Below, piece after piece: positions 1-4,591 of a DNA stretch of 58,628 bases. The notes under the pieces are model-generated. The model saw only the letters and a list, made by a program, of their open reading frames with translations, was not told the origin of the DNA and ran no database searches. Every line of letters starts with the position of its first letter. The stretch's first letter is position 1. Origin of the DNA: an uncultured Candidatus Saccharibacteria bacterium (GTDB taxonomy: Bacteria > Patescibacteriota > Minisyncoccia > UBA11713 > 2-01-FULL-45-33). Both the position numbers and the translations under genes were made by a program. Location of the stretch: NCBI GenBank assembly GCA_964367075.1, contig CAYIWH010000001.1, forward strand, positions 1-58,628, in the 5' to 3' direction.

Positions 1-60
1 AAAGCGAGTTATTATTAACAGAAAGTGTTCGGATTGAGGGGTGCGCGTAGGTCCTTTCCT

Positions 61-92
61 CCAAAGCAAAAATAGCACAGATGGTGCTATTT
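61..92 (-). terminator. Rho-independent terminator downstream of tRNA-Asn
   Basis: 8-bp stem AATAGCAC/GTGCTATT with a 5-6 nt loop. On the minus strand it is followed by TTTTTGCTTT. Confidence 0.6.
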
Positions 93-98
93 TGTCAA

Positions 99-450
99 TG
101 GCTCCCCGGGTAGGGATCGAACCTACGACCTTCTCGTTACATTTGATCCATCATTACTGATGGTATGGACTATATCATCTCCATGTCTATAAAAGATTTA
201 GGAGCGAGGCGCTTCGTCACGCTTCTTGCATGGCTACTCTCTTGCGAGATAGTCTCTGAACCTTCCCAGCACCACTTTTGGTTTTAATTACTTCAAACCA
301 AAAGTGGTGCTGGGCTTGGCTGCGGATTACCGTTTTCGTTTGCTACGAAGTTCGGCTTCCCGCAATTCACCTCATTTTTCAATCCGCCTTTCGACGGAAA
401 GCTGCGTTTAATGCTCACAGCGAGCCGCTCTACCGCTGAGCTACCGGGGA
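99..450 (-). tRNA. tRNA-Asn(GTT), encoded CCA, interrupted by a group I intron (exons 417-450 and 99-139)
   Basis: The joined exons give a 75-nt cloverleaf: TCCCCGG TA GCTC AGCGGTA GAGC G GCTCG CTGT|TAA CGAGA AGGTC GTAGG TTCGATC CCTAC CCGGGGA G CCA. It has anticodon GTT and discriminator G, and strongly resembles bacterial tRNA-Asn. Confidence 0.85.
140..416 (-). ncRNA. Group I self-splicing intron (277 nt, no ORF) in the anticodon loop between positions 35 and 36
   Basis: The 5' exon ends in U and pairs GCUGU:GCAGC (P1, with a U.G wobble at the splice site). The intron ends in G. Core motifs are AATTGCGGGAA, CCGCAGCCAAGCCC and GGTTCAGAGACTA, plus a GCAA-capped hairpin TCTCGCAAGAGA. A 20-bp perfect hairpin lies at 265-314. 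Confidence 0.85.
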
Positions 451-700
451 ATATTAAATTGTCAAACTCACACTATATTCCCCGAGTATCTTTTTGAACG
501 GCTCGATGAGACACTTCGTGTACAGCGGATAACTCTTGCGCCAGCTCAGAGTAGTCCTCCACCGCTGACATGCCCGCCTATGGCGGGGCTACCGGGGAAT
601 ATTAAATTTTTCAAACTGATATTATATTGATGCCGCCCAACTGCGTTGGACGAGCCTCGCCAGCAACTGGCGGGGAATACTAACACTATAATACTAAATT
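441..700 (-). repeat. Three tandem promoter/leader-like units (copies at about 441-480, 589-628 and 671-700)
   Basis: Read on the minus strand, the units are TATAGTgtgagTTTGACAATTTAATATTCCCCGG, TATAATatcagTTTGAAAAATTTAATATTCCCCGG and TATAGTgttagTATTCCCCG. The first abuts tRNA-Asn position +1. Confidence 0.6.
471..598 (-). other. Degenerate tRNA-Asn-derived segment or candidate small RNA
   Basis: It starts with TCCCCGGTAGC, identical to the first 11 nt of the tRNA. A GC hairpin (CCCGCC ATA GGCGGG) and a D-loop-like TCAGCGGTGGAGG follow. It ends in CTCGGGGA, which can pair with the 5' end. It does not fold as a cloverleaf. Confidence 0.3.
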
Positions 701-761
701 TTCTGATAAAAGCAAGCGACTTGCCAGTTTGTTACTTTTGGACGACAATTATATTTATATT

Positions 762-1052
762 ATGGATAATCAAGTGTTGAAGGCAGAGTGCATTGTTCGA
801 GGCAGAGTGCAATTGGTAATGTTTAGAGATTTTGTCGTGCGTCGCGCTCGCGAAAATAATATTATAGGACGTGTAAAAAATTTAAGCGACGGCTCTGTAT
901 ATATTGTAGCCGAAGGACTCCCCGAAAATATGTCTAGCTTTTTGGAATTAATTCAAAAAGGCCCAGCTTTGTCAAAAGTAGAAAGTATAGATATACATTA
1001 TAGTACGCCGCAAGGTGAATTTAACGATTTTAAAATAGATTATGGCAACTAA
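762..1052 (+). CDS. acyP: Acylphosphatase
   Basis: VRGRVQLVMFRDFV...GRVKNLSDGSVYIVAEG fits the acylphosphatase signature. ATG 762 is preferred over the upstream TTG at 729. Confidence 0.8.
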   Translation: MDNQVLKAECIVRGRVQLVMFRDFVVRRARENNIIGRVKNLSDGSVYIVAEGLPENMSSFLELIQKGPALSKVESIDIHYSTPQGEFNDFKIDYGN

Positions 1053-1737
1053 AAATAAAAAAATTCCAACAACCATTGGTATTATTGTTGATGGCAATCG
1101 CAGATGGGCAAAAGCTCGAGGACTGGCCTCTCGAGAAGGACATCGCGCCGGATATAATAAATTGAAAGAAGTATTGAGCTGGGCAAGAGACAGCGGAGTA
1201 AAAAATGCTATTTGCTATGTTTTTTCGACTGAAAATTGGAAAAGGTCAAAAGAAGAAATATCTTTTTTGATGGATCTTCTCCGCTCTCTTTTTATGCAAA
1301 ACGAGGTTGCCGAATTTCGTAAAAATGGAATAAGTATTCGAGTGGCAGGAGATCGTACAATGCTTGACCCCGATTTGCAGACTCTTATCTCTAAGGCAGA
1401 AAAAGATACTCAGAACGAAAACAAAATGATTTTATCGTTTGCGTTGTCCTACGGAGGCAGAAAAGAAATAGTCTCCGCAATCAATCAAGCGCTAATTGAC
1501 GGCAAAAAAATGATTACAGAAAACGAATTTTCAAATTATTTGTGGACAGCCGGCGTCCCCGATCCTGATATTATTATTCGCACAGGAGGGGAGAGGCGAT
1601 TATCTAATTTTTTACCGTGGCAATCTGTTTATAGTGAATTATTTTTTGTTGACACAATGTGGCCTGATTTTTCCAAAGGAGAATTTACCAATATTCTTGA
1701 AGAGTATGCGGAACGCGAGCGCCGGTTTGGAAAATAG
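1042..1737 (+). CDS. uppS: Undecaprenyl-diphosphate synthase (isoprenyl transferase)
   Basis: IIVDGNRRWAKARGL, FSTENWKRS and RTGGERRLSNFLPWQ motifs. It overlaps the acyP stop. Confidence 0.95.
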   Translation: MATKNKKIPTTIGIIVDGNRRWAKARGLASREGHRAGYNKLKEVLSWARDSGVKNAICYVFSTENWKRSKEEISFLMDLLRSLFMQNEVAEFRKNGISIRVAGDRTMLDPDLQTLISKAEKDTQNENKMILSFALSYGGRKEIVSAINQALIDGKKMITENEFSNYLWTAGVPDPDIIIRTGGERRLSNFLPWQSVYSELFFVDTMWPDFSKGEFTNILEEYAERERRFGK

Positions 1738-1769
1738 TTTTTAACATATGCTAAATATATACTATACGT

Positions 1770-2324
1770 ATGAATAGAAATCATATTGCTGTAATTATTT
1801 TAATTATTATATTCGCTGGCTTTATGGAATTGAACATGGATAGAACGTTGATCTATAAATATGGTCCTGTGCGTTTGTGGTCTGGCGATATAAATAGCAA
1901 TCAAAATTCACAACAGATTGCTGACCCATATACATTTACGCACATAATTCACGGATTTGGATTTTACGCACTAGCAAGTTTAATCCCCACGCCATTGTCG
2001 CTTGGCACGCGCGCTATCATTGCCATAGCAGGCGAGTCTTTGTGGGAGGTAATCGAAAACACAGACATGGTAATCAATCGATATCGCGCCGCGACTATCT
2101 CTCTGGACTATTATGGAGATAGTGTAATAAACTCTGTATTTGATATTTTAGCCGCGCTTCTTGGTTTTTGGATTGCTTCGCGCGCGAGAATAATTTGGAC
2201 TATTGTTTTAATGATTGTTATTGAAGTAATTTTATTATTATGGATACGCGACAGCTTGGTTGTTAACATTATAATGTTATTGTATCCAATATCGGCTATT
2301 AAAATTTGGCAAGCTGGTTTATAA
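1770..2324 (+). CDS. DUF2585-like membrane protein
   Basis: NSQQIADPYTFTHIIHGFGFY resembles the UPF0314/DUF2585 family. It has multiple TM segments, and TATACT lies 6 nt upstream of the ATG. Confidence 0.65.
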   Translation: MNRNHIAVIILIIIFAGFMELNMDRTLIYKYGPVRLWSGDINSNQNSQQIADPYTFTHIIHGFGFYALASLIPTPLSLGTRAIIAIAGESLWEVIENTDMVINRYRAATISLDYYGDSVINSVFDILAALLGFWIASRARIIWTIVLMIVIEVILLLWIRDSLVVNIIMLLYPISAIKIWQAGL

Positions 2325-2332
2325 TTAATTAT

Positions 2333-4591
2333 ATGGAAATAATACTTGTTATAGGCGGTTTAGTATGGTTGGCAATATTATCAAATCGAGTTTCAAATAT
2401 TGAGCGTGGATTAGGATTGAAGCGCAAACACGAAGAATCCAAGACATTATATAAACGATGGTTGGAAAATGCAGAGCCAGTCAGCCATCAGGAAACCGTA
2501 CAATCAACAGAAATTAAAAAAGAAAGCGAGCCTGTCCCCGTCGCGCCATATTCAAGTTCTGTGTCTGTTTTGTCGCAGACTCGACAAGATCAAGAATTGG
2601 AATTTAAAATGGGAAGCCGTATTCTCACTGGTGTCGGAGTTGTGGCAGTATTATTTGGAGTCGGATTTTTCTTGCGGTATGCCTTTGACAACAATTTGAT
2701 CACCGAAACCATGCGTGTAGTACTTGGTATCGTTGGCGGATTTATTTTAATTGGTATTGGCGCGACTATTCATCGTTCATACGCGCAGTATGCACAGGTG
2801 CTATCTGGCGGAGGAATTGGTCTTTTATATTTATCTCTTTATGCGGCTTTTAATTATTACCAATTGATCACTCAACCTGTCGCGTTTGCGATGATGGTTG
2901 GCGTGACTGTATTGGGTACAATACTTGCTATATTTTACGATTCACTTCCATTAGCTGGATTTTCTCTTTTCGGAGGTTTTTTGACACCATTTATTTTACC
3001 AGTGGTATCTCCAGATCCAAACGCATTATTTATTTATATATTTCTTCTTGATGTAGGATTTTTTGCTGTAGCATGGCGCAAATTGTGGCATCATTTATCT
3101 ATTGCAAGTTTCGCAGGCACTGTATTAGTTTATACTTCGTGGTATTTGCAAAATTATTCAAGCACGCTTTTTAGCACGGCGTTTATTTATTCAACGCTTT
3201 TCTTTTTGCTATTTTTTATTTTATCGCTGTATTATCAGCAATCGGAATTTCAAAGCAAGTCATCTCTTGAATTGATATTTATCAATCCACTTTTGTATTA
3301 TTTGATAAACGCTTTTGAAATACAACATTTATATAAAGATAATTGGGCCACAGTATTTACATTGGCGCTAGGCATATTTTATTTGACTATGACATTTATT
3401 TCTTCGGGTGTGTTCAAACAATCTATTCGTTCATTTTCAAATCAAGTTCTTTTTGGGATTTCACTTGTATTTTTTGTAGTTGCGGTCCCAATTTATTTTG
3501 ATAAAAATATAATTACTATTATGTGGGGAGCGGAGGCCTGTATTCTGTTGCTGGTTGGATTATTTTCTCGCATGCGAATTGTCAGGTTGTTTGGTCTGGC
3601 AGTTTCCGCGTTGGTGTTTATTAGATTAATAGCGTTTGATTTGGCAACCCCTGTTACAGCGCCGTGGTTCAACGATCGCTTTATTACGTACGCGTTTTCT
3701 TTTGTCTTTTTTGGAGTTGTCGCTATTGTTCATTGGCTTTATCAAAACACAGAACAGGCCGCTTCTTTGTCATCCGAAGAGCGCGACGAAATACAACTCG
3801 TGATTTTTTATTCCACAATAGCCGCGTATCTAATTTCTTTAGCAACAGTTTCCTTGGAAATATTTAATTTTTATGAGCATATGATATTTGGAATATTGTG
3901 GTCATTGTGGGCGCTTGGTGGTGTAGCGCTCGGGGTGGTAGGCCGCAACTCTATACTAAGATTTTGTAGCTATGTTGTTTTTGTTTTTGCGGGTATTCGC
4001 GTAATATTTTTTGACGGCGCAGTAAACTTATATTCGTATACCCCAGTTTTAAATGACAGGGTATTGCGAGTGCTTGTATTTATTGCGACCTTAGGATGTG
4101 CTCTATGGATTATTAAAAAATTCGAAGACAAAATAAGCGCAAGTGAAGGTGCGAATTTGATACAATTGTTCGCTCTTGCAATCAACGCAATTCTTCTTTG
4201 GCTTGTCAGTGTGGAGGTGATAGATTATTTTGACAAACTTATTTTAGAATTGCCGAGAAATACTGTTTCCGGTGGTGCAACCTCTTTGAGATATGTGGAC
4301 ACAAGAAATCTAGAAAATTTTAAGAGTGCTGTTCTTTCAATCGCTTGGACATTGTACGCAATTGTTCTACTTGTGATTGGTATTTACAAAAAATCCAAAA
4401 TTGCGCGCACTGGATCCATCGTGTTATTTGGAGTAGTGGTATTTAAAGTATTCTTGGTGGACACCGCGAGCTTGGATGACTTGTATCGATTTATTTCATT
4501 TATCAGTCTCGGAGTCATATTGCTTGTAGCCGGATTTTTGTACTATAGATTTAAAGATAGGATTATTCATTTTCTCGACGCTAGTGTTTAA
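2333..4591 (+). CDS. Polytopic membrane protein, DUF2339-like
   Basis: About 750 aa: an N-terminal TM, a charged linker, then more than 15 hydrophobic segments. ATG 2333 is preferred because TTG 2306 overlaps the upstream gene. Confidence 0.65.
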   Translation: MEIILVIGGLVWLAILSNRVSNIERGLGLKRKHEESKTLYKRWLENAEPVSHQETVQSTEIKKESEPVPVAPYSSSVSVLSQTRQDQELEFKMGSRILTGVGVVAVLFGVGFFLRYAFDNNLITETMRVVLGIVGGFILIGIGATIHRSYAQYAQVLSGGGIGLLYLSLYAAFNYYQLITQPVAFAMMVGVTVLGTILAIFYDSLPLAGFSLFGGFLTPFILPVVSPDPNALFIYIFLLDVGFFAVAWRKLWHHLSIASFAGTVLVYTSWYLQNYSSTLFSTAFIYSTLFFLLFFILSLYYQQSEFQSKSSLELIFINPLLYYLINAFEIQHLYKDNWATVFTLALGIFYLTMTFISSGVFKQSIRSFSNQVLFGISLVFFVVAVPIYFDKNIITIMWGAEACILLLVGLFSRMRIVRLFGLAVSALVFIRLIAFDLATPVTAPWFNDRFITYAFSFVFFGVVAIVHWLYQNTEQAASLSSEERDEIQLVIFYSTIAAYLISLATVSLEIFNFYEHMIFGILWSLWALGGVALGVVGRNSILRFCSYVVFVFAGIRVIFFDGAVNLYSYTPVLNDRVLRVLVFIATLGCALWIIKKFEDKISASEGANLIQLFALAINAILLWLVSVEVIDYFDKLILELPRNTVSGGATSLRYVDTRNLENFKSAVLSIAWTLYAIVLLVIGIYKKSKIARTGSIVLFGVVVFKVFLVDTASLDDLYRFISFISLGVILLVAGFLYYRFKDRIIHFLDASV

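Follow-up and report, generated by a model that had tools for sequence, protein, structure and literature searches.

Positions 99-450 of the window, by which we mean the whole stretch of 58.6 kb that was analysed, carry on the minus strand a gene for tRNA-Asn(GUU), and the 277 nt at 140-416 that split this gene between tRNA positions 35 and 36 are a real group I intron without an open reading frame (ORF). It is very likely that the locus as a whole represents a tRNA-Asn(GUU) gene with an ORF-less group I ribozyme of the type catalogued as Asn.4Ug, and that this ribozyme is a member of a mobile family that targets the site. That the tRNA-Asn(GUU) gene contains a group I intron without an ORF had already been proposed in a first look at the letters, here called the sequence-only reading, and the proposal is supported by the Rfam intron model RF00028, by ARAGORN, by a complete paired core and by covariation. 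The locus has the following parts:

417..450, minus strand: 5' exon of tRNA-Asn, tRNA positions 1-35 (ARAGORN), ending in C32 U33 G34 U35
140..416, minus strand: group I intron, 277 nt, ORF-less (RF00028, ARAGORN), with G1 at 416 and the terminal omegaG at 140
99..139, minus strand: 3' exon of tRNA-Asn, tRNA positions 36-76 (ARAGORN), with G73 and with CCA at 101-99
63..93, minus strand: terminator-like hairpin (69-93) with a U-rich tail, adjoining the tRNA 3' end (-12 kcal/mol, z = -3.4)

When the exons at 450-417 (34 nt) and 139-99 (41 nt) are joined to TCCCCGGTAGCTCAGCGGTAGAGCGGCTCGCTGT|TAACGAGAAGGTCGTAGGTTCGATCCCTACCCGGGGAGCCA, ARAGORN recognises a 75-nt tRNA-Asn(gtt) with a canonical fold, a 7-bp acceptor stem, the discriminator G73 and an encoded CCA. 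Also in the native sequence, with introns allowed, ARAGORN calls a tRNA-Asn i(35,277) with the anticodon gtt and thus returns the same boundaries, and this intron-aware run, which had been suggested as a check, bears out both the two exons and the 277-nt interruption between positions 35 and 36 that had been claimed. In these boundaries, G140 stands directly before U36 of the tRNA, and the predicted spliced junction is CTGT|TAAC, i.e. ...GGCTCGCTGT|TAACGAGAAGG. The split gene is missed by ARAGORN in its default mode as well as by the Rfam tRNA model, and it is the sole tRNA-Asn gene within the 58.6-kb window, as had been stated, since the tRNA scan of the window found no second one. Its splicing may be essential, as the sequence-only reading supposed, provided that the rest of the genome has no intact copy. 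Just upstream, at 462-600 on the minus strand, there is a decayed tRNA-Asn-like copy.

The group I identity of the interruption can be seen from the match of RF00028 (Intron_gpI) to positions 147-426 on the minus strand, which covers the full model (1-253 of 253) with 78.9 bits and an E value of 2e-18, the gathering score being 50 bits. This is the only RF00028 match in 58.6 kb, and the covariance-model search that the sequence-only reading had recommended hence speaks for the intron. The 5' exon ends in a U that forms a U.G pair with G12 of the intron (GCUGU with GCAGC, intron nt 12-16), and together with the score, this U.G pair in a P1 with an internal guide, the omegaG and a covarying P3-P8 core with the P3/P7 pseudoknot are the features expected of a member of RF00028. 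The fold is far more stable than that of shuffled sequences (minimum free energy, MFE, -101.9 kcal/mol vs -65.1 +/- 4.4 kcal/mol; z = -8.3), and when the intron is folded by itself without constraints, the MFE structure recovers every helix that is not part of a pseudoknot. The helices were assigned manually on the basis of the cmscan alignment and verified by a script, which gave 13 helices with 83 pairs that are all Watson-Crick or G.U. A failure of P3-P9 to fold had been named as an outcome that would speak against the intron, and the opposite was found, as every helix is fully paired and the MFE fold agrees. In window coordinates, the helices are:

421-417/405-401, minus strand: P1, GCUGU with the guide GCAGC, U417.G405 at the splice site, plus G416-C406; L1 has only 9 nt
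397-393/388-384, minus strand: P2, GAAA tetraloop; all 5 pairs doubly changed in the family, 96% paired
374-368/211-205, minus strand: P3, UGAGGUG with CGCCUCG; 5 of 7 pairs doubly changed, 96% paired
364-359/326-321, minus strand: P4, with the J3/4-P4 core AAUUGCGGGAA; invariant in 44 of 44
356-353/332-329, minus strand: P5, from the cmscan map and the MFE fold
349-345/339-335, minus strand: P5a, covaries in the family
320-318/262-260, minus strand: P6, invariant in the family
314-295/284-265, minus strand: P6a, 20 perfect bp with a 10-nt loop
256-250/172-167, minus strand: P7, G-A-GACUA with UAGUCC, in a pseudoknot with P3; 100% paired and near-invariant
249-246/241-238, minus strand: P7.1, GCAA loop; covariation in the 13 members of the family with this hairpin
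232-228/222-218, minus strand: P7.2, kept in the closest relative (L165) via compensatory changes
204-194/188-179, minus strand: P8, the 4 outer pairs 97% paired and doubly changed
163-158/153-148, minus strand: P9, GUAA tetraloop, covaries; followed by AUCAAAUG, which ends in omegaG140

P7 is the guanosine-binding helix, its 5' strand being preceded by J6/7 (GGUUCA) and its 3' strand by J8/7 (AUGAUA). All core strings quoted in the sequence-only reading are present in the intron, but the label P7/P3' that had been given to GGTTCAGAGACTA does not hold, as this string is J6/7 together with the 5' strand of P7. Between P7 and P3' there are 36 nt that form the two hairpins P7.1 and P7.2, and because of this position the GCAA-capped hairpin at 238-249, which had been taken for a P8-like element, must be renamed P7.1. 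The perfect 20-bp hairpin at 265-314, on the other hand, is real and corresponds to P6a. There are no further copies of the P6a stem in the window above chance, which is why its interpretation as a dispersed palindromic repeat or MITE was rejected. A sensitive Rfam scan of 451-700 yielded no RNA family, the only matches being spurious ones of miRNA models on the P6a hairpin. No credible ORF exists within 140-416, in agreement with the claimed absence of a homing-endonuclease gene; the largest ORFs overlapping the region have 40-53 aa and are without support.

Introns of this kind are found in many other genomes. Species-representative genomes and viral contigs were scanned for a pattern in which the D-arm of a tRNA and an anticodon loop with CTGT at its end are followed, at an appropriate distance, by the J3/4-P4 core; this pattern matched at least 119 genome loci and 36 viral contigs. 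Among the 163 pattern matches listed, 100 were rejected, as they are uninterrupted tRNA-Asn genes that happen to have ATTGCGGG downstream; these false positives include Photobacterium, Azospirillum, Acinetobacter and nearly all viral matches. One further locus (L014) was excluded as a false 'intron'. At least 44 further tRNA-Asn(GUU) genes are split at the very same site, by introns of 194-266 nt, and among the split genes listed, 44 of 44 have U-1, omegaG and a GCAGC guide, and the introns of this genome set are likewise ORF-less in 44 of 44 cases. The U.G pair in P1 and the terminal G, both of which had been read correctly from the letters, are thus invariant throughout the listed relatives. 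The hosts of the split loci were taken from record titles; the counts are lower bounds, and the labels of metagenome-assembled genomes (MAGs) may be wrong:

Saccharibacteria/Saccharimonadales, including Ca. Saccharimonas aalborgensis: at least 16 split loci
other CPR (Daviesbacteria, Berkelbacteria, Peregrinibacteria, Peribacteria, Giovannonibacteria, Wildermuthbacteria and unnamed Patescibacteria): at least 11 loci
MAGs of unclassified "bacterium": at least 6 split loci
MAGs labelled Gammaproteobacteria: at least 5 split loci
Chloroflexota: at least 3 split loci
Omnitrophota: at least 2 split loci
Planctomycetia: at least 1 split locus

The paired core is under selection as a structure throughout this family, judged by an alignment of the window intron with 43 distinct relatives (44 introns), which was made by MAFFT with no structure fitted. 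In this alignment, 87.4% of the cells are paired, vs 36-42% with slid partners, and 499 cells are doubly changed, vs 110-150 in the slid controls; not one of 500 shuffles reached the observed covariation values. Compensatory changes are plentiful in P2, P3, the base of P6a, P5a, P8 and P9. The first nucleotide of the intron is paired with the nucleotide that precedes the guide G in all 44 introns (CG 18, AU 14, GC 11, GU 1), and as this P1 pair is internal to the intron and occurs in three Watson-Crick types, it defines the 5' splice site regardless of constraints on the exon. With its 277 nt, the window intron is the longest among the introns listed, and the excess length is due to P6a: the P6 region comprises 58 nt in the window vs 18-46 nt in the other listed introns, and of P6a the basal 7 bp alone are common to the family, where they covary. 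An insert separates P7 from P3' in about three-quarters of the family, and the form found in the window, P7.1 followed by P7.2, recurs in several members (L073, L096, L077 and others). A conserved P10 was not found across the family; with no more than 3 contiguous pairs in the window (UAA with UUA in L1) and at most 2 in 33 of the 44 relatives, this helix is weak or absent.

The sequence-only reading had considered Asn(GUU) as a possibly new host with a new insertion site. In favour of this, the hosts given in the classical reviews and in the group I intron database are limited to Leu(UAA), fMet, Ile(CAU) and Arg(CCU), as restated in a preprint by Williams (2020, bioRxiv 10.1101/2020.01.27.920355), and in a keyword search of the literature no peer-reviewed paper was found that names a group I intron in a bacterial tRNA-Asn. 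A paper on cyanobacterial tRNAs (PMC5733544) does not fill this gap, because its 'group I introns' have 22-49 nt and are not ribozymes, and Asn is absent from it. It is nevertheless highly improbable that the tRNA-Asn(GUU) site has escaped notice so far. The preprint (10.1101/2020.01.27.920355) describes the use of RF00028 together with intron-aware ARAGORN on about 80,000 genomes, by which the number of split bacterial tRNA types was raised from 4 to 21, 17 of them being new, and its seed alignment contains Pam37.Asn.4Ug, where site 4 denotes the position between 35 and 36. Lui et al. (2021) noted in passing group I introns in tRNAs of circularised metagenome-assembled genomes, and the at least 44 public genomes with an intron at this site add to the count. 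The claim of a new host or site had therefore to be given up. By its tRNA-Asn(GUU) host, site 4, U-1 and omegaG, the window locus can be assigned to the Asn.4Ug type, and this type is clearly already on record and abundant in public genomes.

Among ultra-small (CPR) bacteria, Asn.4Ug introns are common, and the locus is a good annotation catch and not a discovery. It adds a clean example to a family that is known only from a preprint catalogue, and it changes nothing in what is known about group I introns. The practical side is more relevant: as the default tRNA finders miss the gene, genomes like that of the window will be reported as lacking tRNA-Asn, and such a missed tRNA-Asn distorts inferences on completeness and on the genetic code for CPR and other uncultured bacteria. 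The same problem was encountered by Lui et al. (2021).

The closest catalogued counterpart, Pam37.Asn.4Ug, shares with the window intron the tRNA-Asn(GUU) host, the 35/36 site, U-1, omegaG and the order of the core helices, and here, too, P7 and P3' are separated by a further hairpin, after which AGCGCC forms P3'. It differs in the guide, which is UGUA in Pam37 and GCAGC in the window, in an additional hairpin after P2, and in having a single P7.1 of the Saccharibacteria type, whereas the window intron has P7.1 and P7.2 as well as the 20-bp P6a. The classical IC3 introns that were compared (Azoarcus tRNA-Ile(CAU) and cyanobacterial tRNA-Leu(UAA), tRNA-fMet and tRNA-Arg(CCU)) resemble the window intron in being small (about 200-250 nt) and ORF-less, in their position in the anticodon loop, in a P1 that is formed by loop bases with a U.G pair, and in GNRA-capped P2 and P9. 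Also the core of these introns (Aol6.Ile2.5Ug and others) is that of the window, with AAUU(C/G)...GGGAA, ...GCC-AAG... and ...AGAGACUA. The insertion sites are different, namely 34/35 in Leu, 33/34 in fMet and 36/37 in Ile and Arg, in contrast to 35/36 in the window, and in the IC3 seeds P7 leads straight to P3' (GACUA-GA-C-GG...), without P7.1/P7.2 and with a short P6a, whereas the window intron has both hairpins. The direct passage from P7 to P3' that marks IC3 introns is therefore not found in the window intron, and as P7.1/P7.2 are a hallmark of IA-type introns, such as the td intron of phage T4, it was not filed under IC3. Hairpins between P7 and P3' as at 218-249 of the window occur in the tmRNA introns Cbo40.tmRNA and Tsu4.tmRNA of the Williams seeds, and inserts similar to those of the window are present in the seeds Asn.4Ug, Lys.2Ug, Phe.2Ug and Leu.1Ug. 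The tmRNA and IA-type introns reside in a different host gene and the window inserts are much shorter, and the likeness is architectural only.

As to the function of the intron, we infer from fold and conservation that conventional self-splicing is the best-supported reading. The precursor would fold into P1-P9 with the extra P7.1/P7.2 and the long P6a, and an external guanosine bound in P7 would attack the phosphate after U35, which would be held in the U.G wobble by the guide GCAGC. G140, the omegaG, would then take the place of the guanosine in P7, and the freed 3'-OH of U35 would attack the G140|U36 bond, whereby the exons would be ligated to tRNA-Asn and the intron released. Alternatively, the intron, though of genuine group I type, could depend in the cell on a host protein, such as a chaperone or a maturase-like factor. 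Many group I introns need such help in vivo, no P10 is evident, and the products of ORFs found in sister introns (see below) could double as maturases, while the window copy has no ORF. This dependence is nevertheless unlikely in view of the compact and highly stable fold described above and of the GNRA tetraloops on L2 and L9, which are found also in the self-splicing tRNA introns of the Azoarcus type; moreover, the ORF-less copies form the majority of the family, including all 44 of the listed genome set.

The immediate relatives of the window locus were collected by scanning metagenome contigs for the exact 29-nt end of the 5' exon (417-445), which is present in 35 contigs. In five independent assemblies of Hainich groundwater (0.1/0.2 um fractions), the tRNA with its intron is identical base for base, and this identity argues against an assembly artefact. 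One could think of a chimera in which a foreign intron was joined to the tRNA-Asn halves by the assembler, as the metagenome coverage is low (about 5x in the contig names) and some contigs break in the tRNA 5' exon, at window positions 426-427. Such an error is hardly conceivable, however, when the complete tRNA with intron recurs in five separately assembled samples, when the P1 guide is complementary to the anticodon loop of its own tRNA, and when the same architecture is found in at least 44 unrelated genomes.

The tRNA-Asn gene is uninterrupted in 28 of the 35 contigs with the identical 5' exon end, and in three of these (L189, L193, L195) also the 3' exon is identical to that of the window, so that these three are true intron-less alleles, exons being identical on both sides. 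The survey for intron-less alleles that the sequence-only reading had advised was thus fruitful. In the remaining 7 of the 35 contigs the site is occupied by an intron, which is either short (219-222 nt) or long (542-595 nt). RF00028 matches 4 of the 5 long introns, with 55-72 bits, and the P1 loop of each long intron contains a conserved ORF, about 105 aa in length, with the motif CxxC...HH...CANCHxEI (L165, L187/L198, L190, L192). The ORF matches the Pfam HNH model with 19.1 bits, which is below the cut-off of 21.4, and PDB profiles of a group II maturase En domain, of McrA and of IscB at E values of about 0.05-0.09. As these matches are all sub-threshold, a firm HNH assignment was rejected, and by weak but consistent matches the sister ORFs can be called HNH-like, nothing stronger.

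The closest relative of the window intron is one of these ORF-bearing introns, L165. From the guide to omegaG, both ribozymes comprise 268 nt, with 82% identity, and the differences are concentrated in P2, P6a and P7.2, with preserved pairing. The P6a of L165 is again a stem of at least 20 bp, of largely different sequence, and the fact that a long P6a is kept while its sequence has changed indicates that this arm is a conserved RNA feature of the branch and no accident. These data also bear on the question of whether the window intron is a dead relic that no longer splices, in which case this copy of tRNA-Asn would be a pseudogene and the cell would rely on another, intact tRNA-Asn gene elsewhere. 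Only 58.6 kb of the genome are visible, the decayed tRNA-Asn-like copy at 462-600 on the minus strand indicates that duplication and decay do happen at the locus, and no conserved P10 was found. A relic is still very improbable, because the window copy has kept all core helices and all invariant family positions, its two exons match those of functional intron-less alleles exactly, the compensatory differences from L165 point to continuing selection on the RNA fold, and the sequence is identical in five assemblies. Most likely, the window copy would persist because it is spliced efficiently enough to do no harm.

An endonuclease-like ORF in the sister introns together with coexisting intron-less alleles is the expected signature of intron homing. 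A tRNA intron with an endonuclease gene is known from Synechocystis, where the tRNA-fMet intron encodes the endonuclease I-Ssp6803I, and in this respect the sisters of the window intron are comparable. Unlike that intron, the window copy is ORF-less, and the sister ORFs, which would code for putative nucleases, are HNH-like and not of the PD-(D/E)xK type and are located in the P1 loop. Of the traits of a homing intron, a patchy distribution with empty sites was found, and an encoded endonuclease is absent from the window copy. With its ORF-bearing sisters, the intron-less alleles and the kinship with L165, the window copy is best read as an ORF-less form of a mobile intron family, which may either have lost the endonuclease gene or never have acquired it. 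The coexistence of ORF-less, ORF-bearing and empty alleles of one site fits a homing cycle, and since all three states (no ORF, an HNH-like ORF, or no intron) occur at site 35/36 in contigs that share the exact 5' exon, this textbook pattern is open to experimental testing.

It is more doubtful, though conceivable, that the window intron and its relatives form a structurally distinct lineage, with an IC3-like core, IA-like P7.1/P7.2 and, in the window and L165, a P6a of at least 20 bp, which would at present be mobile among ultra-small groundwater bacteria. This mobility would be driven by an HNH-like endonuclease that has its gene in the P1 loop and acts on the anticodon loop of tRNA-Asn, and the copy in the window would be a survivor without ORF, on which the only tRNA-Asn of its cell would depend. 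Should this be true, the trio of ORF-plus, ORF-less and empty sites would make homing in CPR bacteria directly testable.

A phage origin of the locus was rejected, as a megablast of positions 1-3000 against a phage collection gave no match and the locus is surrounded by common housekeeping genes of bacteria. The proteins of the first 12 kb had no match among taxon-labelled genome loci, and for all 38 large ORFs the labelled matches were to a few widely shared proteins of unrelated lineages (CopA with 34-45% identity, a protease with about 32-36%), which give no position for the host. Judged by the 0.1-um filter fraction and by the relatives of the intron, the host would be an ultra-small bacterium of the CPR type. 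At distances of up to about 10 kb from the tRNA-Asn, the window encodes a PIF1-like helicase, DsbA, VKOR and a DUF2585 protein, and several contigs with intact tRNA-Asn genes encode proteins with 44-54% identity to these four. Four contigs with intact tRNA-Asn genes (L185, L170, L177, L178) are loosely syntenic with the window, and as such relatives combine an uninterrupted tRNA-Asn with related neighbour genes, the intron is patchily distributed within the broader lineage.

The tRNA-Asn intron family probably has a homing endonuclease of its own. Five metagenome contigs that share the exact 29-nt 5' exon end of the window carry, at the same 35/36 site of tRNA-Asn, introns of 542-595 nt with an open reading frame:

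L165, 52-646: ORF-bearing intron
L187, 2467-3026: ORF-bearing intron
L198, 13043-13602: ORF-bearing intron
L190, 245-787: ORF-bearing intron
L192, minus strand: ORF-bearing intron

The conserved ORF of about 105 aa lies inside the P1 loop, its four versions (L165, L187/L198, L190, L192) are 62-73% identical in pairwise comparison, and it has the HNH-like signature CxxC...HH...CANCHxEI, with every match to HNH models below threshold. The product is probably the family's homing endonuclease. The site holds two different ribozyme cores, both with homologous HNH-like ORFs (L190 and L192 versus L165 and L187/L198). One core, AATTGCGGGAA...GGTTCAGAGACTA, is that of the window, and the other, GATAACGGTG...CCGTAGAGACTAGATACC, is like that of the Tyr.4Ug and Thr.2Ug seeds in the alignment of bacterial tRNA group I introns by Williams (2020). 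As two different cores at one site carry homologous ORFs, the sequences suggest that endonuclease gene and ribozyme have been swapped as separate modules.

Another feature of the tRNA-Asn locus is a tRNA-like unit directly upstream of the gene, in a neighborhood with several related strings:

462-608, minus strand: tRNA-Asn-like unit of about 140 nt
445-457, 593-605 and 671-683: related strings near tRNA-Asn

The unit contains a second occurrence of the 20 nt that precede the tRNA-Asn gene, repeats the acceptor 5' strand (TCCCCGGTAG) and the D-loop (TCAGCGGTgGAG), and has a matching acceptor 3' strand (CTCGGGGA) at its end. Aligned to the mature tRNA, the unit scores 71 (shuffles 50 +/- 4), and it looks like a decayed copy derived from tRNA-Asn. 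The region has no match to any Rfam family and its fold stability is not above that of shuffled sequence. The string at 671-683 is a third copy of the promoter-like CGGGGAATAyTAA. Among the assemblies sharing window sequence, three independent ones start exactly at window position 1 and three others break at 426-427, within the tRNA 5' exon, which is consistent with assembly-graph branching, with either the repeat of the 5'-exon sequence (578-608) or other tRNA-Asn alleles of the same community as its cause.

The anticodon stem has a G27-A43 mismatch as its top pair (window 424/132). Many uninterrupted tRNA-Asn genes with the same anticodon arm have it too, including those of three metagenome contigs with exons identical to the window's (L189, L193, L195), which makes the mismatch a feature of the lineage rather than damage.

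Intron-aware ARAGORN misreads several split tRNA-Asn genes of public genomes (L018, L020, L043, L045, L046, L049) as tRNA-Thr, tRNA-Tyr or tRNA-Leu, with the intron placed at position 30-34, and host identity from automatic split-tRNA calls therefore needs a manual check. In a sensitive Rfam scan, the P6a hairpin region (258-328) gave sub-threshold matches to microRNA precursor models (mir-4433, mir-4889 and others), which are spurious and drawn by the 20-bp hairpin, an example of how long perfect hairpins generate such matches.
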